A DNA stretch of 61,855 nucleotides, filler included. It is 14 parts of 14 records of this genome, joined end to end, with 100 filler letters (N's around TTAATTAATTAA, not from the genome) between each part and the next. Parts side by side here need not be neighbours in the genome. Positions count along the whole stretch, not along the records: positions 39,067 to 43,181 come from SRR7504441_12038; 13 more parts are not named here. One strand, given 5' to 3'. Within the stretch, counting starts at the first letter, position 1. Each line of letters starts with the position of its first letter. Position numbers and translations under genes: made by a program. Shown in pieces: positions 2,060-47,990 of this stretch. Below the pieces are notes generated by a model. The model ran no database searches, was not told the origin of the DNA, and saw nothing but the letters and a program-made list of their open reading frames with translations.

Positions 2060-4075
2060 TCACTGCTTCTCCTTCTCGGGCTCCCAATCACTCAGCTCTT
2101 GCACAAACTGTTTGAGCTTATGCTGGATCGCCCTGTACCCCTTGGTCCGCATCACCTTGGTCAACAGCCCCTGCTGGTGCTCCGCATGCTCCTTCCGGCC
2201 AGCCTCCACAGTGGTGCCTCTCTCTGGCTTGTCAGCCACCGGCTTGGCAGTGACCACTGTGCCGCCCTGGGCTATCTCCTCGGGGGTTAGCGTTGCGGCC
2301 AGCGCCTTGGCGTTCACCATGGCCTTCTCCTTGGCATGTCGCTCCTCGATCGCAGTCCGTTCCTCTGGTGTCAGCTCTTTCAACATCGCGCGCTTCTCCT
2401 CCGGTGCCATCTGCGCTAGCATCGCCGGGCTCACATGCGCCACTAGCTCGGTCCGCTCCTCGGCAGTCATCATGGCAAACCGCTGCTTGGCGGTCAGCGA
2501 AGCGCCCATAGCTCCACTCTCCTCGGGAGTCATCATGCCGAGCATCTTCTCCCTCTCGGCCGGTGTGAGCTCGACAAACATGGCCGCCTTGGCCTTGGGC
2601 TTCATCCCCGCCAGCATGGCCGGAGTGATGGCTTCGACCAGCGCGGCTCGATCCTGTGTGTGTAGTTGGTCCAACTCTGGGGTCACCCCGCTCAGCACCT
2701 CGGCATTGGAAACCACCACGTCTCCCTCAACCTCGGGTGCAGCGGGCTCCTCCTCGGCAGCCGCGGCCTCCTCCTCGGTAGCTGCAGCTTCCTCCTCGGC
2801 AGCCGCGGCCTCCTCCTCCTCGGCAGCTGCAGCTTCCTCCTCCGCTGGCTGGGCCTCGGCCCCGGCTGCATGCCCGTAGTGAGGCGGCTGCACAAGGCAC
2901 GCTACTTGCCGGGGTGCTGCAGCAGCCTTTCTTGTTTCACATAGACTGCAGTGTCCTTAACCGCACAGTCCTCCGTGAGCACCGGGATATCCAACCTGCC
3001 TGTGACGCACAGCCGGCCGCTTGCGTCGACAATCTCGCCTCGCCATTCGCAAATAATCGCCAGCTCGTAGCACACAATCCGCTTGCCTGCCCGCCAACCT
3101 CTCCCGGAGTCTGATGCCCAGGCCTGACCTTTGCGGATGCTGTTGCTGGCCGTGCCCGTGACCTCAGGCTTGTGCAGCTCGAGCCACATCTCGGTCCCAG
3201 GTGGCAACGCGCTCGGGTTGACCTTTGACACCAATTCTCAGCCTGGGATTGGCGCAGGCTATCATATGACAAATATATAGATCTGTGTGCTGCAACCTGG
3301 ACCAGCCGATCACATTCGAGCAGCTGCTTGAGTCTATCCGCTGCCCACGTGTCCAGGCAGCGCTCCTCCCAGTGGTACCCAGTATTCCACTTAGACATCC
3401 CCTGCACCACCCTGTGACGCAAGCCGCACCCAATGGGCTGCCTGCTCGGCCCCTCCAGTAGCCTCCCGCTCCACCTGCTCCACCTCCTCGGGCGCCAACG
3501 GCTTGTGCTCCACCGACGCCGGCTCCACCTCTTCCTGCGCCGCCTCCTCCTCCTGCTGCTGCTGCTGCTGCCGGCGGCTGCGTCTCCGATGCGCATAATA
3601 GTAGCCGCCGCCCATCTTTCGCTTGTCGTAATCGGCCTTCTTTTGCTGCTCGGCCCAGTAGTTCTGCAGCTGCAGCTCGTCGTTGTGCTCCAGCTGCTCC
3701 CCGATCACAGCTGCGCCCACCCGGGTGAGCGCACACCGCCCCGCCCCCCACCGGAGCTCGCAATCGGCTTGCCCCCCTTGAGCACCGCCAGATCCTCCGG
3801 CTTGAGCTTGGCCTTGTTGGCCACCAGCAGCTCCTCGGCTTGCTCGTATGCGTCGGCCAGGGGAGTCATTCCGTTGCTATTGAGCATGATCTCCTTGCCC
3901 AGGTCGCCCGCCCGCTTCTCATTGTAGTGATTGGCAAAGAACTCCAGGATGGCGCTGATCGGCTTATCCAGCCAGCTCACCGGCACCTGCCCCGACCCGC
4001 TCCCCCGGGTGGTGGGTGCCCGCGCGCCGTGAACTTGAGCGGCTTGCTCCGCGGGTACCGCAGTACCACCTTCAT
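2060..4075 (-). CDS. Activator of Hsp90 ATPase (Aha1) N-domain protein with an acidic/Ala-rich linker and M[TS]PEE-type helical repeats; about 6 short introns
   Basis: Spliced sequence reads MKVVLRYP...GYYYAH...GMSKWNTGYHWEERCLDTWAADRLKQLL...EVTGTASNSIRKGKRIVCYEL..EWRG, matching the Aha1_N pattern. One junction near 3220-3296 is uncertain. Confidence 0.7.
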
Positions 4076-23543: not shown

Positions 23544-23767
23544 TGTACTGTGGACTGCTGCGCAGGTGGGGGCTAAAGGAAGGTACAGGGACACTCCTTC
23601 TCTCCCCCCCCCGTCGGCACGACTGCCGTCGACGGCCTTCTTAGAAACCGTTGCTTTTAACGGCAAATGCTCGGCCTCGGCAATTATCGGGAGGTGCGAA
23701 ACCTCGGATCAATTATGCGCGCAACCCGGTTGCCTTCGACCTGGAGGCCCACAACGAAACAACGCAC

Positions 23768-25711
23768 ATGGGCGCATCACCAGCCTTCGACCTGGAGGCC
23801 CCGCCCTCGATCCAGCCTGTCCACGCCCACCAGCCACCTGCTCCTCACAAGCCCCCAGCCACCGTCGACCTGGAGGCCCCGCCGGCACACGACTCGCTCA
23901 AGTTGTCGTCCGGGCCGCGGCCGCAGCTCAGCCTGGAGTGGAGCCTGAGCTACACGGTCACCGCCAGCGAGACCGGCCTGCAGAAGACCCTGCTAGACCG
24001 GGCCGTGGGCGTGGCCCGTCCGGGGGAGCTGCTGGCGATCATGGGCCCGTCGGGGGCCGGCAAGACCACCCTGCTCAACTGCCTGTCCGGGCGGAACAAG
24101 AAGCACGATGGGAGCATCACGCTGGTGGACCAGGACGGGGCCCGGCAAGGCTGGAGCAAGAGTATGAAGCGAGTGACCGCCTACGTGCAGCAGGACGATC
24201 TGATCCAGCCCACCATCACCCCGAGGGAGCACCTGCTCTTCCACGCGGCGCTGGCCATGGACCAGAGCCTGCCCGAGGCCGAGCTCGCCGCCGCGGTGGA
24301 CGAGCTGCTCCAAAGTCTCAACCTGGTCAAATGCGCAGACACGCCGGTGGGCAACCCAGGGCTGGTTCGAGGCGTGTCGGGAGGCGAGCGCAAGCGGCTG
24401 AGCTTCGCCACGCGGCTGCTCGGGGACCCGTCGGTCCTGTTTGTGGACGAGCCCACTTCGGGGCTCGACTCGCACATGGCGGAGGAAGTGATACGGATGC
24501 TGCAGCGGCTGGCCAGTCTGGACCGGCCACGCACTGTGATCGCAACCATCCACCAGCCGAGCTCGCACGCGTTCAACCAGTTTGACCGGCTGCTGCTGCT
24601 CACCAACGGACGCGGCGTCTACCTCGGCCCGGCCGACCAGGCGGTGCAGCACTTTGGCCAGTTTGGGCTGAACTGCCCTGAATACATGAACCCAGCTGAT
24701 TTCTTCCTTCACGTGCTCGGAGTGGAAGAGTTCAGCCAGGCCCGCGACCAGCTGTGCGACGGGTACAACAAGAGCTGGCCGGTGACCAACCTGGAGCCAG
24801 AGCCAGCTGTGGCTGCCAAGTCTGAGAGCGAGTACACGGCGAGCTGCTTCAGGCAGTTCAAGATGTTACTCTGGCGGGAGTGGGTCACGCGGATGCGAGC
24901 CCAGCGGGAGACCAAGGCGCTGATTCTGATGACGGTGTTCATTAGCACTGTGCTCGGGCTCGTGTACTACCAGCTCGACAATACACAGAAGGGCGTGCAG
25001 AGCATGAACGGCCTAATGTTCCTGTCGTTGGTCAACCTGGCGATGCAGAACGCCGCACCTACCATCATAAGCATCGCCGGCAACCTGCCCATGTACATGC
25101 GCGAGCACAAGGACGACCGGTTCTATAGTATGTCCACGCTCTACTTGGCCAAGTCAGTGGGTGATTTGCCCTGGCAGATTGCAGTCCCGCTGGTGTTTAC
25201 ACTCCCGCTTTACTTCCTGGCCGGCCTGCCGCTCAATGCCGGTGTATTCCTCAAGTACTTGCTCGTGATGACCTTAACCACCAACGCGGCCTGCTCACTC
25301 GGCTACCTGCTTGGATGTGCTGCACGGGACGTGGACATGGCTCAACTGCTCCAGCCAATGGTGCTGCTCCCCAACATGATCCTCTCTGGGTTTGTCATCA
25401 ATCTTGACAACCTGCCTGTCTGGATGCAGCCGTTCTCATACGCTAGTTTTGTCCGATATGGCTTCACTGCCCAGTCGATCAATATCTGGACCAGCGAAGA
25501 TTACAACAGCATTCCATGCTCGAGTGCTGAGCAGGCTGCTGACCAATGCATGTTCAAGAGTGGAGATCAAGTACTCAATTACCTGTCGATGGACAAGAAC
25601 GCCTTCTGGTTCAACGTTGTTATCCTGGCCGCGATCACTCTGGCCTTTCGTGTGATTGCGTATGTGGCACTCCGGCTGAGGGCACGCAAGTACAAGACAG
25701 TAGTGAGCTAG
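23768..25711 (+). CDS. ABCG (White/Scarlet-like) half transporter; intronless
   Basis: GELLAIMGPSGAGKTTLL, VSGGERKRLS, DEPTSGLD, TIHQPS, NPADF and an ABC2 membrane domain. Confidence 0.95.
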   Translation: MGASPAFDLEAPPSIQPVHAHQPPAPHKPPATVDLEAPPAHDSLKLSSGPRPQLSLEWSLSYTVTASETGLQKTLLDRAVGVARPGELLAIMGPSGAGKTTLLNCLSGRNKKHDGSITLVDQDGARQGWSKSMKRVTAYVQQDDLIQPTITPREHLLFHAALAMDQSLPEAELAAAVDELLQSLNLVKCADTPVGNPGLVRGVSGGERKRLSFATRLLGDPSVLFVDEPTSGLDSHMAEEVIRMLQRLASLDRPRTVIATIHQPSSHAFNQFDRLLLLTNGRGVYLGPADQAVQHFGQFGLNCPEYMNPADFFLHVLGVEEFSQARDQLCDGYNKSWPVTNLEPEPAVAAKSESEYTASCFRQFKMLLWREWVTRMRAQRETKALILMTVFISTVLGLVYYQLDNTQKGVQSMNGLMFLSLVNLAMQNAAPTIISIAGNLPMYMREHKDDRFYSMSTLYLAKSVGDLPWQIAVPLVFTLPLYFLAGLPLNAGVFLKYLLVMTLTTNAACSLGYLLGCAARDVDMAQLLQPMVLLPNMILSGFVINLDNLPVWMQPFSYASFVRYGFTAQSINIWTSEDYNSIPCSSAEQAADQCMFKSGDQVLNYLSMDKNAFWFNVVILAAITLAFRVIAYVALRLRARKYKTVVS

Positions 25712-28865: not shown

Positions 28866-30171
28866 ATGGCAGCAGCAGCAGATCTGGACAGGCGAGCCTC
28901 CGCCGCACTGCAGTACGTCGAGTCCGCGGCCCGGCAGCAGCAGCCCGGGGCGGTGGGCACAATCACCGAGATCTGCACCATGTCTAATCTCCCCGGCTCG
29001 GTGCCCGCCGCGCTGCTGGATCGGCTGGGCTCGGCGGCCAGGGTGGCCATCCACTTCCATCCGGACAGGACGGTGCACAACGGCAATTCGGTGGTGGGCT
29101 CGATGCTCGAATCGGGCACCGTCCAAAACCAGTTCGAGACGTTGATTTCCAACGGACGGCTCGACCCGGACCCGACCGGCCAGCGCGCCGGGTGGGAGGC
29201 CAACCTGTTCGGCGGGGCGTACAGCAACGCCCCGCCGGCTGAGCGGCCAAAGTATGGCGCGATGGCGCTGCTCGGCCAGGCGGACGGCCCATCGCCGCGG
29301 TTCGGCTCGTGCTATTTCGTGTTGAACCCGGAGGTGTGTGGCGGTTAGTGGCGGTTATTTCAACGGTCGGCAGGTGACGCACCGGAGCACGTTCTGCTTC
29401 GGCGACTCGCACACAAACCCAACGGTCCGGGGCACAAGCAGCACCTGGGAGCCGGTGATTTCCAACGGCTTTCCAACGGCTTTCCAACGGAATTTAGGTG
29501 CTCGCGGAGCTGCTGAGGGAGAGTTTCACCCGCGACGAGGCGGTGCAGCCAATGCTGTCGGGTCAAAGTCCGTTAAATGTCGTTAGGTGGGGGTGCGCCC
29601 GTTGCGGCCTGCGGGGCTGGTGCGCCGGATGAGTGGGCTGCTGGAGGGCCCGCTGGAGCTGCTCTGGAATCAGCATCCCGCGGCACGGAACCTCGATCAC
29701 TATGTCGAAGCGCAGGTGCTGCCACTATGCTTTAGGCTATACAATAGTGTATTATATAGTATGTAGTATATTATTATGGCGGGGGTAGGTGCATGGCGAG
29801 GTCCGGCTGGATCGGGACGTGGCAGCGCTGGTGGCCGACCCGTCGTTCCAGGTTAACACCGCCTCCCCGATTAGGAAGGTGGCGCTTAACACGCTGCTCA
29901 GGGCACAGAAGCCGGCGAGCAGATGGCCGCGCTAGCTGACCGGTGCGGCTATTGCCGTTAATTCCAACGGAATTCAACGGGCAGATATGGCGTGCTGCTG
30001 CAGTGGCATCCGGGTTCTGCTCTGCTTGTGAACCAAGTGCTCAGTTTGATTTGATTTATTAATAATAATATTTAGTATTAACAGAGATTATTCTGCAGGT
30101 GCCGTCGGACTTTCGAGGGCCTCAGATGCCAAACATGGCAAAGATGGTGCCCAACCGACTAATCTGTGGCC
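28866..30171 (+). CDS. DUF3626-family protein (bacterial-like), at least 7 introns, 3' partial
   Basis: RVAIHFHPDR, QFET.ISNG, WE..LFGGAY, RPKYGA, GPSPRFGSCYFVL, RSTFCFGDS, LDHYVEAQVHG.V.L..DV..LVADPSF, VPSDFRGP. Confidence 0.8.
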
Positions 30172-31656: not shown

Positions 31657-34613
31657 TCAGGCGACTCGGAGCTGCGTAACCAGCTGCATAACGTCTGGCT
31701 CGGCCTCGAAATCGTATCGCATCAGCATCTCGACCAGCTTGTCGCACCGCTGCTCGAGCCCCACCGCCGCCGGATTCACCACCTCAACTATCGGCTCGCT
31801 GTTCTTTAGGTTGTCGAGCACTGTCAGCGCCCTGATCACAACGGAATCGCACAGCCCGGCATGCTTGGCTACAAAGTGCGCAAATGGCTGGTGGCTGGTC
31901 GCGCCGCTCTGGACAGTATAGAGAAAAGCGGCCTGAATGGCGGTGTCGGCCGGGTCTATGTGCACGCTCATGTGCGACAGCTGCAGCGCCGGGTGATCCA
32001 GCGGCAGCAGCCCCGGGCTGAACAACTCCCAGAAATGAGTCGTGAAGATAGCCCGAGGGCAGTCGGAGCCCCGGTTGAGCAAGTCTGTTATGGTAGCAGC
32101 CATGAGCGCGCAGCCGCTGAACTGCTCGGTGCCCTTGCCGAATTCATCGACGAGCAGCAAAGAGTGGCCGGTTGCGTGGTTCAGCATCGAGAGGATCTGG
32201 GGTTAGCGTTAGGATCCAACGCCAGCCGGTCGGTACCTTGCACAAGTCCATCTCAAACATCGACTGGGCGCGAGTAACAGTCTCAACTGACGAGATTCGG
32301 GTGGCGATTCTGTCCACGGGGCCGATCATGGTTGCCCGAGCAGGCACGAAGCATCCGATATGGGCCATGAGCTACAACATAGGCGCCTCCCGTCAGGCTA
32401 AAGCTGGGCTCACCCAGCGTGTCACCGTGATCAGCCCGACTTGAGTCAGGTAAACAGACTTCCCGCTGCTGTTCGGGCCGGCCAACAGCTGAACTAGCTG
32501 CCTGTGGTCGCCCCCGAGCTCTGTGGTATTCGGAATAAAGTCTCTGTCGCCCTGGATGCTGATCAGCGGGTGCCTCCCACCTTGGATCACAAGCAACAGC
32601 TCCTGTGCCACACGCTCGGCCGCGTCAGCGGAGCCGAGGACCTCGGTCAGGCATGGCCGGTTCCAGTCGTATTCAAGAGCAGCTGAGGCCATTCCGACTG
32701 CGACATCCAGCTCGGCGATTCGAGCGGCCGCCTGGATGATGAATGGCACGCTCTGATTCACGTGGTCGCACAGAGTCCTGGCAGCCGGTCTGACCGAACG
32801 TGGCTGGCTGCCACCTTTCCATCTCACTGTGCAAGTCGTTCAGCTCGCCCTGCAGGTCGCCGAGCCGATTGTCCAGCATCTTCATCGTTGGCGTCTTGCA
32901 GTAGCAAAAGATCCCCTCAGCAGAGTTGTTTTTGAAGACCCACTGAGCAGGCCGCTCAGCCGAGTGCTCGCGGGACATGGACCTCGATATCTGGATTGCG
33001 CTGTGTAAGGCCGGAGCCAGTTGAGCGCTCTGCGGCGTCGTTGCTCACTGAACAACCGAAACGCTCACTGTGAGGTCCCGCTGGCTGACGACTTACTGCA
33101 CAGGAAGTATCCCATCGTCGGCAGGTAGACGCAGCTGACCTTCAGGCAGGCCCGCAGGTCAGAAACAGCCCAGAATAGCAGCTGGATACTTCCTGAAGCA
33201 GTGGGTAGCGGGCCATTTCCTCTGAGCAGACTTGCTGGAGCAAGTCTGGAAGACCGGACAGCGTGCGTTCGACTTCGTCGATTTTGGAGTTGATGCCATA
33301 TTTGCATCGGAACTCCTTTCGATTCCTGAAAGAAAGCTCAACTGTTGTGTCTGCGCAGCCTCGACTCACTTCATCTCTGCGAAGTCGAGCAGTCTCTCAA
33401 GGGTCGCATAAATCAGATTGCAGGCGTCAGCCATCTGGCCCGTCAACCGCAGGCTAGGCGCAGCTTCCGACTGAGCCATTTTCTTTTCGATTTCTCTCAT
33501 TGCTCGCATTGTACCTACCACCCGCTTGTGGGCGGACATCCGCTAGAGAAAGGCGTCTCACTGTGAAGAGACATCCAGTCGGTGGTTTTCATCCTGGCTT
33601 GGCGGAGTTTGACAGGGAATTTGGCCACCTCTTTCACAGACCTGAGGCTGAAAGACAGATCCTGGAGCTCGCGGTGATTCTCTGGGGCCGTCAGATAGCT
33701 GACTCGGTCCAGCCGCGTCTCCAGCTCATGCACGTCGTTGATTGGGCGGAGCAGCCAGGATCGGAGCAGCCGCCGGCCCTGAAATCTGAGCTCAAACTGG
33801 GTGCGGCTGGCGCCTCGTTGCCTGAAGCGTCTTCATTCGCTCGGCGAGAATCCCGTAGAGCGAGAATCCCTCTTTAGATGTGCCAGTGATCGAACCTTCC
33901 TTGGTGAAGACCATCAGCGCATTCAGAGATTCTGGGCTGACGTGGACCGGCCCGTTGAGAAGAAACGAGGCGCAGTCGAAGATGGAAAATCCGGGGTAGT
34001 GCTTATCCAGAAACCAGACCAGCGCCCCGACCGCCCTGACCGCCACGGTCTCGTCCTGTGGATTGATGACGCTCGCGAGCCTCCGCGGGTTGTCCCCCAG
34101 ATGGGTTTCCAGCCTGGCGTTGCCCTTGATCACCTGAAACTCGCTGTTGGGGCTGCCCCCCGACCCGGACAGTCAGCCCTCCTCCCGCCGATCAGTAGCG
34201 CACCACGAGAACGTTTCGGTGGGCGCCTCGCTGTTGGGGCTGAAAGGCTGCTCGGCGGCATCGATGAAGCCAGCCGTGGCAGCCGAGCTGCAGATCAGCA
34301 GGTTCGGCTGCAGGTCGAACTTGAGCATCCTGAGCGCATCGTGCTCGGCAGTCTCGGGGAACTCGCCGATGAACAGGCAGCCGTTCTCGAGGTACGAGGC
34401 GCCCAGCTTGCCCCCTGCGCTCAGCACCGCTACGATGCGACCGGGCTGCTCCTCGGAAGACGGCTCGCCGTCGGAGCACGGCGCGGAGGCTCGCGCGCTG
34501 GCCAGATCCATCACGGGAAGCTGCTGCAAGCCAAAGACAGTACTGGGCGGCACGTCGTATAGATCATTACCCGTCAAATCGGTGGAGGCAAGCCCTGCAG
34601 CACCCGAAGCCAT
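31657..34613 (-). CDS. MSH5: MutS homologue 5 (meiotic), many introns
   Basis: KEGFSLYG, GRRLLRSWLLRP, GPNSSGKSVYLTQVGLI..MAHIGCFVPA, SMFEMDL, SLLLVDEFGKGT, IFTTHF. The DEFGKGT and GKSVYL signatures fit MSH5 rather than MSH2/3/6. Confidence 0.85.
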
Positions 34614-39066: not shown

Positions 39067-41700
39067 GCTGCTGCTGCTGCTGCTGCTGCTGCTACTACTA
39101 CTACTATACTATGGTATACTATACCTGCCCCAGGGCTCAGGTACGACGAAGGCCATGCTGACAACAGACACAGCAAACACCAAGGAGGCCACCATCAACG
39201 GAATTAGGCTATTCCAGTTGACTTGTGTTCGTGATCGCACAAAGCTCTGCAGGTTTTCCTGGTCGATCGATTCGTCGATCAGACCAGCAAGCCTGTCATA
39301 GCATCGCATATACCAGGTTAGATAAGCTAGCAACGAGCCCGAGATCACTGCGGCCGCCAATGGAACCGAGAAGAACTTGCTGCAACGGCTGTCCCGCAGA
39401 GGCGACGTCCTCTTGATACTAAGCCAGACCAAAGGCAGCTGTGCGGCGCAGGTGACGCCCAGTATGATATAAGTCTCTATTCCAGCTTGGTAACACATTT
39501 GGCACATGTCGGCATCAAGGCCCTTGTTGCACAGATGGCTGATCTGCTGCCACTCGCCGGTGCCCTCGTGCCCGACATCGACACATGCACCGTACGAGTT
39601 CACGCACTGCTGGTATTGTCCGGTCGGGAGGCCCCGGGTGGTCTGGGCGAAGCTGTCTGCAAAACGCAGTAGAATGGTCAGCATACATTGTACTATACTG
39701 TGTACTACTATACTACTATGCCGTGTAGCTATATACTATCGAGCACCTGCGGAGACGCAGTAGAACGCGAAGACAAGCCCACCGATAGTTAGATCGTACG
39801 GCACTGTCACTGCCAGCTCTTCAGTCCCGGTGCTCAGCACTCCGCCGGTGAGGCTTTCACACCTTGTAACCCCGCAGTTAGCACTACTGTGTACTACTAT
39901 ACTGGATACTACTGTATACTACTATACACGCTCTCACACATTATCAACCTGCAGTTAGCATACATTGTACTGTATACTATTATACACACCTTAGCCCGGT
40001 GTACGAGAACACCCCCCCGGCGTTGACCCCGGCGTTGACGCTCATCCCGTTGATACCGGTAACCGAACTGCTCTGCACCACCACCGCTGCAGTCCTACGC
40101 TCGGCCGTGCCGTTCCGCAAGCTGACAAGACCTTGAGCCGACCGGCGGGCAGCGGTGCAGATCTCTGCGGGGCACCACGCGGCACCCCCCCCAGTTGGGA
40201 TGGAGGGGTCGATCGCACAGGCGTAGTTGGTGTCGTCGCAAAGGTTGGTGCAGTCAGGGTTGTTGGCCCGGTACTGTGAGGGTTCCCTGCACCTTGATAC
40301 AGAGCTTAGTATATGGTATACCGTATGCATATAGTGTTACACTATATATAGGATTTAGCTTAGCATGGCAGCTGGTCGTAGCACCATTCAGTGTTGGTGT
40401 TGATCGCGCATTCCATGTGAGGATCAAACGACCTGCACAGGCCGCTCAGCCACAGACGACGCCGGCCTGGCCGCTCTCAGCCACAATCACCTGCAGGTTT
40501 CAACTTCGGTCGACTGGTCCGTAATCGACGCCGCGGTGAAACTCACATCGTTCTGAAGATCCGACACGAACTGATCCGTTACAATGTAAGCAGCCACGCT
40601 CTCCAGTGCGGAGGCCGCCTTCACGTCGCTCCGAGTGGTCAACGTAAAAGTCACAACCCCCGATGCCGTTGAGCTCGTGATGGTGACGTCCTTGGCCGTA
40701 CATACACTGACCCCAGTCCAACCGCACACGCTGCCCGGAATAATAATGACAACAACGATTAAATAATAAAAATAATAAGCACCTGCCAGCCTTCGCCGCA
40801 ACCACTGCCTTGAACTTCGCCTGGGCGGCTTCGTTGAAGGCACCGGCGGTCATGCCAGCTAATACCATTATAATCCGTGCGGCAACGGCTTCCGTGTCGG
40901 AAAAGTAGACCTGGGCGGTCGGAAGGAACGTCTGAGCTGTTCGTCTGGTGTCGAGATTTGTCTCGACAGCCGCGTTGCAGCTGAGTTTCAGGCTCATGCT
41001 GTACGGCATGCCCTGGACGGAGAAAGCAACGGCAAAGCAGCTGTTGTCGCTGAAGACTCCGCCCCACAGGTCGGCGCTGGCATCGAGCCCGGCGCACTCA
41101 GCCGTGCTGGAGTATTCCTGGAGCGCGAGCGTGCGCGTATGACAGTTCACCTAGACACACACAGCTCAGTACATGTAAACAGTGCATGCATTGTATGCAG
41201 TGTATTAGCTTAGTATGTAGTATATTAGCTTAGTACCTTGACACAAAGCTTGATGGAGGCCGGCCTGAACGCCAGCACCTGGCTGACCGCCCCATACTGC
41301 CACGCCAGCTCTGAGTAACTCTGGGTGGCCACGCTGCAGGTCGTGTCGTACTCATACAGAATCAACCCAGCTGTCTGTAGGTATGCAACGTTCTTTGTGA
41401 TCATGTCCCCGAGGTACGCGTAAGTAAGCACCCCTAGATCAAACGCCTTACTGTCCCAGTCCACTACAAACCCCGAGCCCGGCCCAGCCATGCTCGTCGC
41501 TCTAAGCTCCATCCCACCGGAGGCCCAGGGCAACGCCGAGATGAACCCAAAGTCCGTTGAGGCTCCATACACCAACGCCAGCCCGCACGCTAATAAACTA
41601 ACCACAGCCAGCACCCCAACCAGCAGCCGGAATCGCACTCGAAGCCAGTCGAACCTCCGGCTGCCCAGCTTGGCGATCCCCCCACACAGGTCATTCCCGG
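39067..41700 (-). CDS. Multi-pass membrane protein with Cys-rich extracellular region, about 8 introns, runs off the contig
   Basis: ORF pieces 41225, 40500, 39980 and 39109 are joinable in frame through GT-AG introns, with several TM helices. It is in frame with the upstream LCAT-like ORF, so the gene boundary is unclear. Confidence 0.55.
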
Positions 41701-43181
41701 CACAGAGAGAGCTGCCCCAGCGCTTCTGGGCGGCGGCTGCAGCACCGTCGATCCCCTGCGCGGCTACCTGGTGCTCCTGCGGGCTACAGAGGCCCAGAAT
41801 GCCCCTGAGCAGCTGCAGCATACGAGGGTCGGATGAGACGCTGCGGTGGTCGCAATTTGGGAGCTCGTGCACTTGCACGCGGCAGTCAGTCGAAGCCCAG
41901 GTGGCTGCGTGCCGCAGGCTCCGGTACGAGACGGTGCCGTCGCCGCTTGCAAACACCTGCGCCGAGTCGTCAGGTCGGGTCTGCGGTATCTGCGCGGTCT
42001 CGTAGCCCACTCCGTCCACGCACACCAAACCGTCAAAATCGCCCGAGCTGTCAAGCTCAAAACAAGACCGCAGCGCATGCTCATCCACAGGCCCCCCTGT
42101 GCACAGTGCCGCGGGGTGTTGAATAAACAGCGTCCTCGGTGTCGGCATATTGATCCCATAAATAGCAGTCACTCGTCCCACGGGCGGCGGGCACCGATGG
42201 CAGTCCGCCAACCCCCCGGCCCCGTCCGGCACCTGCCAGATCTCCGGGCGCTGCTCGAACATTCCCTCAAACTCCCGGAGCGCAAACGGACTTGCCGGGC
42301 TCCAGGCGTGGTTGCCCATGGTACACGAGTTGTATTGCGCCGGCTGGCCGCCGGTGTGCTGGGCCAACGCGTGCTCCGACGGGCTGAACCATGTCCCGGG
42401 CTCGCACACCTTGCGCCCGCAGTTAGCATACACTGTGTGCTAACACTACCCTAGCCCGCAGTTAGCTAGTACAGTATAGCATATAGTGTATATATATGTA
42501 CTACTACACTATGCTATACTATTGTACTAGCGTCAGGCTCGCACCGTCAGGCTGAAGCGGAGGTCGATCCGGGCGGCTTGGACTTTGCCCGAAGCATTGG
42601 ATGAGCTGTACGAGTCGTCCTGCGAGGTGTGGATGATCAGGTCGGTGCACACGATACTACTACACTAGTCTATAGCATTGCTCTACTATACCTGCGAGGT
42701 GTGGATGATCTGGTCGAGCCGCCGCCGCAGTGCCGCCCGGCGAGTGAAGGCGAGCGGCACCTCAATCTGCCCGGCGCAGTGCCCCGACTCGGCCCACTCG
42801 GCACTCGGGATTGTGTGGCTCCCAGATGCTTCCACATATCCGTCATGTAACAGCGAGATCTTGAGGCTGATGCAGTCGGCATCGGGAGCCAACGAGTAGC
42901 TGATACACTCAGCAAACGGACTGTTGCTGTGGAAGTCGAGCGATTGAAGGCAGGCCACCCTTGTGTCGTTGACCTTGACCCGCAGACCGAGCTCAGCGGC
43001 GGGCTCGTTGACATTGAGATCGTGCAACCGTCCGATGAAGACTCTACAGGAGATCGCCTCTCGCAGATACACAAACGGCAAATCTAACCCGTCGTGCCAA
43101 TCCCCAACGGGCAGTAAATACTGGCCGACTGGCACGCTCCGGAGGATGGTGAGCATCTCGGCCTGTGAGAAGAGCATGTCT
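41701..43181 (-). CDS. LCAT/PDAT-like acyltransferase, C-terminal part (5' partial), 2 introns
   Basis: PPPVGRVTAIYGINMPT, SGDGTVSYRSL, ELPNCDHRSV (catalytic Asp/His region). Confidence 0.75.
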
Positions 43182-43281: not shown

Positions 43282-45738
43282 GGGTTTGAGCTGATCTTTG
43301 CAGCCACCCAGCAGCACAGGGCCAACGTGGAAATCCTCAAGACCGCGCTCGAGGTGCTCTCGCTGCTCCGGACCGCCACTCCCCAGCAGCCGCAGCAGCC
43401 AGAGCCGGAGATGCTGCTCGGGCCTGCAGCGGCAGAGCGGCTCGAGGCGCACGAGCTCTCCTCCTCGAGCGACGACGAGGAGGATGAGGAGGAGGAAGAG
43501 CCACAGCCCGAGCCGGAGGAGCTGGCCGGGCAGCGCGGGGAGGCAGCTCCAAGGCCAGTGCAGGGCGCGCCGCTCGAGCCCGGCCCGCCCACTGCCCAGG
43601 AGCCACAGCGGCCACCCACCGCAGCAAGAAGTTCGACGCCGTCGTCAAGCGAGACGACAGCACGGTTTGCGGAAGCGCCGGACGATTTGCTCGGATGGAT
43701 CCCAGGTCCAGAGGGGGCGGAGCCGGAGCCGTTCTTTGCGACGGATAAGACGCTGGTGCCGGATATGATCTTGCATGACCTTGAACGGCTGGCGGCGAGC
43801 GACCGCGGGGTGGTGGTGTACGACTGCGCGAACAAGCAGGCCGAACAGCCAGCGAGCGGGATGCTCCAGTTCGAGTCCAAATTTGAGTCGGGCAACCTGC
43901 GGCGGGCAGTGTGGGTGGGGGAGCACGAGTATGATCTGATGCTCGAGGTGGACGTGAACACCAAGGGCAACACCCAGTGGTACTACTTCTCAGTGCTCGG
44001 GATGGAGCCTGGCGTCATGTACCGGATCAACATGATCAACTTGCTCAAGCCAGACTCGCAGTACAACTATGGGATGCGCCCGCTGCTGTACTCGGAGGCG
44101 GCCGGCACTGGATGGCAGCGGGCAGGTGAGGACATCTGCTATTACCCCAACCACCACGGCAACCTGCACGGCAAGAAGAAAGTGGAGCAGTTTTACACAT
44201 TAACCTTCAGGATTGAGTTCCCACGTGCCAATGACCGTTGCCACCTGGCCTACTGCTATCCTTACACTTTCACCCGGCTGCAGCGGCACCTGACCAGGAT
44301 CGACACCTGCTGCCACCTGCGCCGGCGGACGCTCTGCCAGACACTGGGCGGATACTCGTGTGACATTCTGACCATAACAGACTTTGGTTGCTCCCAGGAG
44401 CAGATGAGGGACCGGCCTGGGGTAGTGCTCACTGCGCGGGTGCACCCCGGAGAGAGCAACGCCTCGTGGATAATGCAGGGTATCGTCGACTTTCTGTGCT
44501 CAGACAACCCGACTGCGGCCTTGCTCCGAAACAACTTTGTTTTTAAAATTGTGCCGATGCTCAAGTAAGTCGTGCGCACTCGGGTAGTGACTGACTGGTG
44601 GTGGTGCAGCCCAGACGGTGTGGCTCATGGCAACTACCGGTGAGCGGCTGCTGGCTCTGGGCTTGCTCAGTGGGGGGGCAGCTGCTCGCTGGCTGGAGTG
44701 GACCTGAACCGGCGTTGGGCCAAGCCGTCCAGGAAGCTCAACCCAGAGATCTACTACACCAAGCAGATGATCCAGAAGCTCCAGCAGACCCGCGAGGTGT
44801 TCGCGTTTGTCGACATTCACGGGCACTCGCGCAAGAAGAATGCATTCATGTATGGGGTGGAATCGCGGCACCAGCGATTTCATGAATGCATCCTGCCTCG
44901 GCTGCTTGCCCAGAACGCGAGCATATTCTCTTATGACGATTGCTCCTTCGTTGTGCCGAAGTCCAAGGAGACCACCGCACGTGTAGTAGTGGCCCGCGAG
45001 CTGGGAGTGCCTAAGTCTTACACACTCGAAGCCTCCTTCTGCGGCGCCAGCTTTGGGCGGTGGGTCGGTCGGACTGGCTCTGGCGAGCGTGTTTGGGCAG
45101 GTATAAGGACTCGCACTTCACCCCGCGGCACTTTGAGCAGCTCGGGCACGCGTTCTGCCACACGTTGCGCGACCTGCTCGACCCGGACAAGCCGGCCAGC
45201 ACGCTCAGCCAGCTGCAGGAGATCCACCGGCGCGAGACAGGTCAAGATGACGACGACGACGACTCGGATTGGGAGCCTGAATCAGGCGCCGAGCCCAAGA
45301 AGAGTAGAACAAAGAAGAAGAGCAAGGACAAGGACAAGAAGAGCGAGAGGCGTGAGCTGTCGGGCCGCAAGGTCTCCAGCCGGCTTGCTGCTTGGACTGA
45401 CTTGCACGCAGGCCACTAGCCGAAAGATCAAGTCCAAGCAAAAGAATAATGATGAGAACTCGAGCGTCGTGTCTGCGCTCACTAGTCGTACGCGCCGGCA
45501 TCAGCCGTCAGGGCTGAAGCGGCAAGTGAGTGCTCCGCCATCTGTGCTCCGGTCCGGGGAAAGTAAGGAGCTTGAGGAGACATGGCCTCGTAGAAGGAGC
45601 AGCGCAATCGAAGTGTCTACAAGTTTAACTGGTAGGAGACGAAGTGTCGAGATGGCACCACGCGTCAAGTCGAAGACAAACGGGTCAAGTAGAGCGCGGG
45701 CAGGCAATAGTACTGTGCGGGCCCCGCATATCAAATAA
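43282..45738 (+). CDS. Cytosolic carboxypeptidase (M14D, CCP1/Nna1-like tubulin deglutamylase), 5' partial, 4 introns
   Basis: FESKFESGNL, NTQWYYF, AYCYPYT, ARVHPGESNASW, VPMLNPDGV..GNYRC..GVDLNR, DIHGHSRK, SYTLEASFCG. Confidence 0.92.
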
Positions 45739-46113: not shown

Positions 46114-47990
46114 TTAGCCGTATCTAGATCGTATCTTGCTCCTGGTTAGTCGCGTCACTCCGGATCCCTTGCGTGATCGGCCTAGAGAACTAGATAGCAA
46201 CGGAGAGGTGTTCGACCGAGAATGACGAGCAACAGCTAGTCTATTCGAACCAAGTTTTGGTGGTGTTGGGTGGCCGGCTGCCATATTGCACATGTGATTC
46301 TTCAAAGCGCCTCCCGATGAACGAAGAGCTGAACCAACGCCATGCGGAACCAAAAGCTGTTGGATGCCCTCTGGCATCAACGAGAACCATGGATCATGAC
46401 GCATTACCCACATTGCTGACTCACAGTCATCTGCGTTGCCCCGGACCCCCGCCAGCTGTAGCCGCAGCATTTCGATCCGGTGCTTTGTCATGGTTGGGCT
46501 GCGTTGGAGTATTGAGACTGCGTCGATTATGGAATTATGAAGGTGTTGAGGAGTTGGTATTTGCTCATACTGCTGTAAAATGCATATCAAAGATGCAAAC
46601 TGTTTTGATCGAGCAACTGACCGATGCAGCCGGTCCACTCCACAAGCTTCGACTGTTTCAAATAACCCGCGGTCTTGAATGCTCTTGAGAACGAGACCAA
46701 CGCAATTGTGGAAAGACTTCTGGTCCCATGCTGGCATTCTGTCCATGCAGACAGAATGGCCATTCTCGTGCTCCTCGACAGCATACAGCTGAATGTTTGA
46801 TACTGCCGAGGAGCCATCGGCTGCAGCCAAATTTGGTGCGGTCCGGCTTTGGCCCTCATTCCGGCCGGTACTTGAAGTAGAATCTCTGGATGCGGCAATG
46901 CATTCGTCTGCTCCAGGTTGACTTCGAGGATGCACCCGCTGCTGTCTGTTTGCTTGCTCACTCCTGGAATTCAGCTCATCGTCTGTCTCGAGGGAGGACA
47001 ATGAGAGCTTGTTACCCTGGACCTGCTCGCTAGGTCCATCAAACAGCTCGTGGCTCTGCATGGCCTTGCCCAGACCTTCCGACGAGGTCGCAGACTGGAT
47101 AAGCATATCCGAAGCGTGAGGCGATTCTTGCTCTACAATGCCGCAGTGCTTTGGGGCAGTCGCTGCTTCAGCGTCAAATAGTCGACCCTCCTCTACGTCC
47201 GTCACTCGATCCGCTTCTGGGTCAGATAGCTCAGGCCTCAGAGGCCGGCTGGGCTCCTTCCCTGGTGTACCGAGTGCCTCTCCCGACTGTGTCAGCTCAA
47301 CGGTCTGGCGAGAGTCTCTCTGTTTGGATTCAGTTTCGCGCTGCACCAAGCCGTCATCAACTGGGTCAGCTATACTGCCGGCATCGACCGGATCTGATAG
47401 ACTGCCGCCATCAACTGGGTCAGCAGTCTGTGCGGATGCGATAGAACAGTGGTTTGCGCCAGGTCCCCCTTGAGTACACTCGTGCTGCTGTCTAGCCGAA
47501 GGCTTCTGCTCTTTAAATCGAGCTGCTTGGTCCTTGGGAGCTCCTTTGAACCACCCCTCATGCGATACACAGGCTTTAAGTGTCTCAGACCGAACCTCGC
47601 CGTGTAGGCCAGCAAAGGCCGCAATCCTGTCATCTGGAGTCATCAAAGCCAGCGCGGCAGCCCTCTCTTCAAGTGACATGTCCCCCAGTGCCGCGTCCAC
47701 ACGAGTAGCCTTGGTGACGGCCTCGGCAGCAGCTTTAGCGGCCTTAGCGGCAGCCTCCTCTGCAGCGGCTCTGGCAGTAGCTTCCTCTGCAGCGGCCTTG
47801 GCCTGCTCCTGGCGTTTTAGTAGCTGTTTGAGCTCCTCGTTGAGCCTGCCTATCTCGTCACAGTCGTCGTTGTCAATCGCGCTCTGCAGTAGGTTCTTCT
47901 TAGTTGCAATCTGCTCAACCAGAATCGTAGCAGCCTCGACAGCAGCTTCCTCTGCAGCGGCTTTGGCAGCGGCCTTTGCAGGCGCCTCCT
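46114..47990 (-). CDS. Hypothetical low-complexity protein, 5' partial (AAAEEA repeats, MSLEERAAAL/MTPDDR helices)
   Basis: Long open frame continuing to the contig edge; no family recognised. Confidence 0.55.

Follow-up and report, generated by a model that had tools for sequence, protein, structure and literature searches.

Intron A1, a predicted spliceosomal intron in a protein-coding gene of a probable marine eukaryote, is very probably a real and fairly young intron that arose by insertion accompanied by a long target duplication. On the minus strand, positions 42716-42691 and 42644-42619 form a 26-nt direct repeat in which 25 of 26 positions (96%) are identical and the start-to-start spacing is 72 nt, so that the predicted intron ends in a copy of the end of the preceding exon. 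The recent age suggested for A1 rests on this one difference in 26 nt. The preliminary description had claimed copies at 42620-42644 and 42692-42716 matching at 24 of 25 positions; the repeat itself stands, and its length has to be extended by one base, since the G that follows the CAG is common to both copies. The sequence after the copies is as described there, with TATAGTAG after the first and ACGAC after the second, and the minus-strand layout, with slashes at the predicted junctions, reads ...CGACCAGATCATCCACACCTCGCAG/GTATAGTAG...GTGCAC CGACCTGATCATCCACACCTCGCAG/GACGAC....

The window, that is the whole stretch of DNA analysed (61,855 nt), consists of 14 contigs of 3.0-7.4 kb each, separated by linkers of 44 N, TTAATTAATTAA and 44 N. 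A1 sits in the contig at 39067-43181, which is read throughout on the minus strand. Four marine metagenome studies yielded Logan contigs that are 95-100% identical to stretches of this contig, parts of A2, A3, A4 and A8 among them, suggesting that its source is an uncultured or poorly assembled marine eukaryote. Removal in silico of eight GT-AG introns (A1-A8, Table 1) leaves a frame that is open over 1114 codons with no stop, and third-position GC is highest in the model frame for all nine exons of the host gene (9/9). A phmmer search with exon 3 as query returned 217 relatives at E<=0.001, the best of them 44-61% identical; an alignment of the conceptual product with six homologues shows matches over exon 1, exon 3 and the last exon. 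The predicted product is a membrane protein of an unnamed family, the homologues of which have an alpha/beta-hydrolase-like N-terminal part. No Pfam family was found at E<=0.01 for exons 1, 3 and 4, and an Rfam search of the contig 39067-43181 gave nothing at E<=1. A match of PF10785 to a segment of the last exon is sub-threshold (17.6 bits against a cut-off of 25) and was taken as chance. A plus-strand reading, based on an 81-codon antisense ORF (42605-42850) that runs through the repeat, was rejected because the homology-supported gene lies on the minus strand. Candidate intron A9 at the end of the contig could alternatively be 3' untranslated region, since the frame closes a few codons further on.

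Table 1. Coordinates of the host gene, its predicted introns, the parts of A1 and a related candidate intron elsewhere in the window.
Feature	Position	Strand	Description
Host gene	39127..43180	-	nine exons and eight complete introns; 1114 open codons after intron removal; based on GC3 and homologues
Exon 2	42545..42619	-	25 codons; GC3 0.80 in the model frame vs 0.50 and 0.54 in the others
Intron A1 (predicted)	42691-42620	-	72 nt, GT-AG, phase 0; 3, 2 and 2 stops in the three frames
Repeat copy R1	42691..42716	-	last 25 nt of exon 1 and first intron base (G of GT); A at 42711 gives an internal CAG
Filler	42645..42690	-	46 nt; TAGTA-rich family fragment; gives T and the remainder of the donor (G/TATAG)
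Repeat copy R2	42619..42644	-	last 25 nt of A1 (branch-like site, pyrimidine-rich run, CAG acceptor) and first base of exon 2
CTGAT	42636..42640	-	only CTRAY in A1; putative branch A at 42637, 17 nt from the intron end; variant T at 42639
Intron A2 (predicted)	42544-42410	-	135 nt, GT-AG; TAGTA-rich family member
Intron A3 (predicted)	41236-41151	-	86 nt, GT-AG
Intron A4 (predicted)	40782-40731	-	52 nt, GT-AG
Intron A5 (predicted)	40490-40433	-	58 nt, GT-AG
Intron A6 (predicted)	40384-40293	-	92 nt, GT-AG
Intron A7 (predicted)	39989-39863	-	127 nt, GT-AG; two tandem TAGTA-rich family units
Intron A8 (predicted)	39746-39657	-	90 nt, GT-AG; TAGTA-rich family member
Candidate intron A9	starts 39126	-	contig end cuts off the rest
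Candidate intron, family member	29716..29788	+	73 nt, phase-0 GT-AG, on another contig; 17/17 match to A3; flanking GC3 0.81 and 0.83

A1 has the termini GTATAG...CGCAG, with GT at its 5' end and AG at its 3' end as in a U2-type spliceosomal intron, and its removal fuses exon 1 (...HTSQ) in frame to exon 2 (DDSY...). The sequence-level predictions that can be drawn from the preliminary description hold: A1 has the GT-AG form, phase 0 and stops in all three frames, and the model spliced in silico is open over 1114 codons. GC3 supports the coding character of the exons on either side, exons 1 and 3 align clearly to the protein family, and exon 2 is placed by eye. The by-eye placement of exon 2 is at the last beta-strand ahead of a conserved HPLxQHxGG motif in the homologues; the MAFFT placement differs. 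Because the protein has a variable loop at the A1 junction, the homologues require the loss of the 72 nt but cannot set the junction to the base. In a search for a protein product, spliced or unspliced, of the same species, the exon 2-bearing ORF gave no match to longer proteins, and exon 1 likewise gave none. A coding tandem repeat at A1 was rejected because the filler has stops in all frames. Coding tandem repeats were accepted as the explanation of look-alikes, for example at 47350-47424.

In first-order Markov simulations (n=100, all 14 contigs), in which direct repeats were scored at spacings of 35-500, the best score had a mean of 13.1 and a maximum of 17; the observed score of the A1 repeat is 23, and it was reached in 0 of 100 simulations. 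A blastn comparison of the contig with the whole window returned the self match and the A1 repeat only. Among the Logan contigs of four marine metagenome runs that were placed on the contig, none spans 42619-42716 and no joint was found; a 35-nt metagenome match of 86% identity beginning at 42717 has unrelated flanks and was taken as chance. Neither these contigs nor a metagenome contig collection gave orthologous DNA for the site.

The sole mismatch between the copies, A at 42711 in the exon copy and T at 42639 in the intron copy, falls where it would matter for splicing. It had been claimed that this T makes CTGAT and abolishes an AG, and both effects are seen in the sequence: the T accounts for the loss of the only internal AG in the intron copy. 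The exon copy reads CCAGAT, contains no CTRA[CTG] motif and has an AG 19 nt ahead of the position of the real acceptor. A branch-like motif that lies at the usual distance and is followed by no AG is present in the intron copy and absent from the exon copy. In seven of the eight introns of the gene the A of a CTRA[CTG] motif lies 13-21 nt from the 3' end, and no AG intervenes. The 25-nt exon copy can be altered by a single substitution in 75 ways; six of these abolish the AG and one makes CTRAY, and the observed one does both, in a count that was made post hoc. We infer that T at 42639 is the derived, selected state; alternatively, T may be the original base and the exon copy may have mutated to A, so that the target would have been suitable from the outset. 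Whichever copy changed, the intron copy as it reads now would be competent for splicing and the exon copy would not.

The preliminary description read A1 as a long duplication plus filler. The long duplication holds, whereas the filler is not anonymous sequence and is a fragment of a TAGTA-rich repeat family that resides in neighbouring introns. A 31-nt stretch of the filler is 81% identical to a part of A2 located 156 nt away. The 13-mer core of the family, TAGTGTAGTAGTA (with up to two mismatches), occurs six times in the window, always in the contig 39067-43181, against an expectation of 0.15, and 0 of 100 shuffles reached six occurrences. In an alignment of six intron units the core is invariant (6/6), and there is a donor-side GT(G/A)...TAG part; the longer family members have GCTAAC or GCTGAC as a branch module in addition. 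Between A7 and A8 there are exact matches of 19/19 and 15/15. The family members are A1, A2, A7 (two units), A8 and candidate A9 in the host gene, together with the candidate intron at 29716-29788. The TAGTA-rich repeat is accordingly present in at least five introns besides A1, one of them on another contig, and the family is found on two of the 14 contigs of the window. As in introner families, sequence-similar introns thus stand at unrelated positions in different genes. The filler opens with GTATAGTA, as A9 does, and is without the family's own branch and acceptor module; judged by its sequence, it is a fragment of an introner-like family in which the 5' part has been retained.

Further copies of the family were sought in sequence collections. 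A degenerate 20-nt pattern had 0 hits in a viral contig collection, and the 19-nt core had 0 hits both in a genome contig collection and in the viral contig collection. A gapped pattern of the branch module matched four metagenome-contig loci, all of them without TAGTA context, and these were dismissed as chance matches. Words of the family were not found in the text supplements searched of two introner surveys (PMC9860276, PMC12130899), the PDF supplements of which may hold consensus sequences.

Duplications related to that of A1 are found at other introns of the same gene. At A8, the 19 nt that end the upstream exon (39765-39747) recur as the final 18 nt of the intron (39674-39657), the copies differing by one indel and by C-to-T changes; the gapped score is 11. 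An 11-nt repeat lies across the junctions of A3 (41245-41235 vs 41159-41149, 10/11), and its exon copy has AAG where the intron copy has TAG. Relative to the exon copies, the intron copies of both A3 and A8 are shifted towards better signals (AAG to TAG; CTCC to TTT). The start of the intron resembles the start of the downstream exon in A2, A6 and A7, and in A2 it is the first 9 nt that are like the start of exon 3. A2 also contains a 13-nt branch motif repeated 13/13 at a spacing of 39 as well as inverted repeats of 11-12 nt, and in A5 a 14-16-nt segment containing CTGAG is repeated, as judged by eye. In A7, a 31-nt repeat (39960-39930 vs 39883-39853, 25/31) takes in the acceptor and extends 10 nt into the following exon; its internal copy has lost the AG and reads AAT at the place of AAG in the working copy. 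The filler of A7 has the same length as that of A1 (46 nt), and this equality was discarded as a meaningful feature: the A7 filler begins with a 19/20 copy of A7's own 5' end, indicating that A7 is a tandem duplication and that the match in length with A1 is probably a coincidence. The flanking repeats of the gene measure anywhere from about 5 to 26 nt and have no fixed length. Inverted repeats were found in A2 only; A1 has none.

Exon-end copying had been expected to extend beyond A1, and the expectation held within the host gene when the exon-end and intron-end duplications of the other introns were tested against permuted pairs and decoys. Exon-end segments scored against the end segments of their own introns give 23.5, 9, 8.5, 8, 7, 5, 8 and 11 for the eight introns, so that six of the eight reach at least 8. 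The non-cognate pairs (n=56) have a mean of 5.65, with 3/56 at or above 8, and 6.5% of random GT..AG decoys (n=5884) score at least 8. The cognate excess persists without A1 (Mann-Whitney p = 0.0008; permutation of pairings p = 0.0016). The top non-cognate score is 12, between the exon end before A3 and the 3' end of A6, which indicates that some of the end similarity is borne by the family rather than by the target. The short flanking similarity of the other introns is in part splice-site consensus. A heuristic scan outside the contig gave candidate introns with 14 distinct acceptors, of which only that at 34153 scores above 8, suggesting that flanking repeats are not general to the introns of the window; the finder requires 40 open codons on each side and therefore misses A1 and most host-gene introns, which makes the scan a rough control only.

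It is proposed that the segment 42691-42620 is a real, relatively recent spliceosomal intron that was made in one step by an insertion carrying a long target duplication, a reading that we consider the likely one. A 46-nt fragment of the TAGTA-rich repeat, resident in other introns of the host gene and in at least one other gene, would have entered the exon after ...CAGG, and the preceding 26 nt of exon would have been duplicated on the far side of the insert. The donor should then have arisen at the junction, with G contributed by the first exon copy and TATAG... by the insert. Since the insert brings with it no branch and acceptor module of the family, the 3' module would come from the second exon copy, in the form of the branch-like CTGAT, the pyrimidine-rich run and the CAG acceptor. 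Predicted splicing would take out the filler and one repeat copy and so regain the reading frame that existed before the insertion; because splicing from the junction between R1 and the filler to the end of R2 leaves a single repeat, the mRNA would be identical to the pre-insertion sequence. The route was probably staggered-break repair, or template switching from a family member, rather than the action of a transposase with a fixed cut, in view of the variable repeat length, the lack of common filler ends and the further duplications in A2, A5 and A7. We infer both the splicing of A1 and the insertion route of its filler.

A more novel reading, which we regard as rather unlikely, is that the genome has a class of "half introners", A1 among them, which would be short donor-only modules (GTATAGTA..., with a TAGTRTAGTAGTA core and no branch or acceptor) that spread with long, variable target duplications of about 13-31 nt, the host exon giving each new intron its branch site, pyrimidine tract and acceptor. 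Such modules might move by retroposition of the 5' part of an excised intron or by template-switch repair primed at splice-junction microhomology, and later point changes would tune each intron (A to T in A1, AAG to TAG in A3, C to T in A8).

It could also be supposed that A1 is a truncated copy of an ordinary introner, that is a non-autonomous DNA transposon moved by a transposase with a true target-site duplication. The occurrence of the filler's repeat family in several introns of two genes, the 11-12-nt inverted repeats of A2, which are like those of a small inverted-repeat element, and the fact that published introners draw one splice site from the duplication (PMC9860276; 10.1101/2020.10.14.339549) would all suit such an origin. 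It is made rather improbable by the flanking repeats of the gene, which are not fixed in length, by insert ends that have no common termini beside the repeats, by the lack of an inverted repeat in A1, and by the lengths of 3-9 bp (PMC9860276) or 3, 4, 5 and 8 nt (10.1101/2020.10.14.339549) given in the available text of these papers for introner duplications. Retroposition of excised intron RNA would explain why the filler begins with the 5' end of a family intron and is without the branch and acceptor module; in this reading, target-primed reverse transcription inserts a cDNA that starts at the first G of a family intron and stops short of its branch. Such transcription typically leaves long duplications that differ in length, and those seen here are long and variable; there is, however, no tail or common 3' end beside the downstream repeat copy, and the copies of the family in the window are few, so that this origin appears distinctly improbable.

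We also think it decidedly unlikely that A1 is not a working intron at all, being instead a recent disruptive insertion into the exon with a chance GT..AG, or an artefact of assembly or amplification. Such a reading draws on the lack of an environmental contig across the repeat in the four marine metagenome runs, on the shortness of the contigs, and on the ending of the repeat in CAGG, by which the first base of the filler (T) alone suffices for GT..AG. Against it stand the remaining gene, intact over its 1114 codons and with strong GC3 periodicity, the related duplications at other introns of the gene, and the nature of the sole difference between the copies, which is the one substitution in 75 that abolishes the internal AG and at the same time gives a branch motif with the usual spacing; as for an artefact, the 98-nt repeat unit would presumably fit inside single short reads. 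A pure tandem duplication of an AGGT-containing exon segment that later diverged (the Rogers model) is consistent with a 3' end of A1 that copies the upstream exon end, and in the same gene A7, with its duplicated acceptor and 10 nt of exon, is an instance of tandem duplication. The model does describe A7. For A1 it is extremely improbable, because it needs the 5' part of the intron to be copied from the downstream exon, whereas the A1 filler is unlike exon 2 beyond the shared G and matches other introns.

The origin of new spliceosomal introns is debated between transposon insertion and break repair. If A1 arose by insertion with a long target duplication, as we favour, the locus shows base by base how an insert incapable of splicing could at once become an intron, the duplicated 26 nt of exon serving as a full 3' module, with one substitution between the exon sequence and a branch site, predicted to work, that has an AG-free tail. 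The host gene carries what look like older versions of the same event. If the pattern were borne out by a whole-genome survey, intron births in this organism could be arranged as a dated series, by which to test whether long variable duplications are the mark of a repair route or of a new kind of mobile element.

Several known systems resemble A1 in part. Introner mechanisms are reportedly the subject of a paper by Huff and colleagues (2016). Published introners take one splice site from the element and one from the target-site duplication, the duplications being 3-9 bp in length (Gozashti et al. 2022, PMC9860276), and for dinoflagellate introners duplications of 3, 4, 5 and 8 nt are given (Roy et al., 10.1101/2020.10.14.339549). 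As far as the text available for these two papers goes, A1 is like introners in that its repeat family occurs in introns of different genes, one splice site comes with the insert and the other from the duplicated target, the mRNA keeps its length through splicing, and the inserts are lower in GC than the exons. It is unlike them in the length of its duplication, 26 nt instead of 3-9 bp, in that duplication length varies between introns instead of being fixed per family, and in that the duplication brings acceptor, branch site and pyrimidine run together while the insert is a fragment without defined ends; in addition, only a handful of family copies are seen here, in a window of 14 contigs. 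Gozashti et al. do accept introner families that have neither a fixed duplication length nor inverted repeats (PMC9860276).

The neointrons of Daphnia pulex have 33 exon-end repeats of 4-12 bp, which are attributed to the repair of staggered double-strand breaks (Li et al. 2014, PMC4202315); their fillers mostly have no known source, and intron polymorphism has been demonstrated (PMC4202315). On what is described there, A1 shares with them the repeat-filler-repeat anatomy and an AT-rich insert, and the internal direct repeats of young introns have counterparts in A2, A5 and A7. It differs in its 26-nt repeat, which lies outside the range of 4-12 bp, and in a filler that comes from an intron repeat family. 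A survey that took in 213 introns of every class reports direct repeats of 4-30 bp (mean 11.4) at intron-exon borders or close to them and interprets them as insertion scars (Rogers and Bendich 2025, PMC11782384). Unlike the cases in the part of that survey considered here, the repeat copy of A1 amounts to a whole 3' splicing module, as predicted, and the filler derives from an intron family. Another known route to an intron is the tandem genomic duplication of an exon segment that contains AGGT (Hellsten et al. 2011, PMC3265369), with a case reported in a potato RdRp gene (PMC4974935). As in those introns, a duplicated exon gives A1 a splice site and the spliced product would be unchanged; in the accounts available of them the whole intron is duplicated exon, whereas in A1 only the last 25 nt are, and the remainder is foreign filler. 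The principle is therefore already in print, in splice sites recruited from target-site duplications of 3-9 bp and in the 4-12-bp exon-end repeats of Daphnia; what is new in A1 is the length of the duplication, the complete 3' splicing module drawn from exon sequence, and the series of similar events in one gene.

Beside the 72-nt candidate intron A1, whose direct repeats flank a TAGTA-rich filler, another direct repeat lies on a contig other than that of the A1 host gene, in a gene that by eye looks MutS-like. The two copies, identical and 16 nt long, stand at 34140-34155 and 34227-34242 on the minus strand, at a spacing of 87, and the 3ˊ end of a candidate GT-AG intron of 60 nt falls within the second copy. 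Because the candidate intron ends inside that copy, both copies would be partly coding, and about nine codons would have been gained by the event. The filler between the copies is GC-rich and does not belong to the TAGTA family. The TAGTA-rich repeat itself is found in a further candidate intron of another gene, where the flanking repeat is only 6 nt long (AG|GTGC).

Coordinates of introns, candidate introns and direct repeats in the window
Feature	Position	Strand	Remarks
Candidate GT-AG intron, 60 nt	34212-34153	minus	CTGAC 20 nt before CAG; flanking GC3 (third-position GC) 0.88
Candidate phase-0 intron, 73 nt, with TAGTA-rich repeat	29716-29788	plus	different contig and gene
A2, host-gene intron	42410-42544	minus	branch module repeated (13/13) at spacing 39; 11-12-nt inverted repeats
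A7, host-gene intron, with 10 nt of the following exon	39853-39989	minus	tandem duplication of the whole short intron unit and 10 nt of the following exon
Two ordinary short GC-rich introns	~44565-44609, ~44640-44681	plus	donors GTAAGT, GTGAGC; coordinates by eye
Direct repeats, 19-21 nt	47350-47424, 23732-23883, 2456-2537		spacings multiples of 3

Within the host gene itself, other introns carry duplications of their own. The old acceptor of A7, which lies in the internal copy of the duplicated unit, has changed from AAG to AAT. The inverted repeats of A2 form a core of roughly 67 nt that resembles a hairpin. Three nt of the TAG-rich part of this intron, at 42499, are deleted in one environmental contig. 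The last 15-18 nt of A6 (40293-40384, minus strand) are closer to the end of exon 3 (41237-41251, before A3) than to the end of their own upstream exon, a likeness that may come from an end shared by the family or from intragenic copying. Past the last exon, positions 39090-39126 (minus strand) read GTATAGTATACC..., which leads into (TAG)n(CAG)n repeats where the contig ends; this segment may be a ninth intron, belonging to the TAGTA family, or a 3ˊ untranslated region.

Each of the three 19-21-nt direct repeats has at least one open frame on either strand, and 23732-23883 has them on both; they are coding tandem repeats rather than scars of introns. Flanking repeats are absent from the two ordinary introns, whose gene, on the contig that follows the host gene's in the window, resembles by eye one for a cytosolic carboxypeptidase. 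The window is composed of 14 contigs of 3.0-7.4 kb each, joined by artificial linkers (44 N, TTAATTAATTAA and 44 N), and therefore "genes" on either side of a linker are not genomic neighbours.

No Pfam family was found for the host protein (gene 39127-43180, minus strand) among the three exons tested. In the window's copy, exons 4-8 hold what appears to be an additional cysteine-rich segment, some 350 codons long; in an unaligned comparison no counterpart of it was matched in the two homologues that extend to the C-terminus. The protein has 217 relatives at E ≤ 0.001, and the features common to its family are GDGTV, CDHR and a cysteine-rich membrane part at the C-terminal end.
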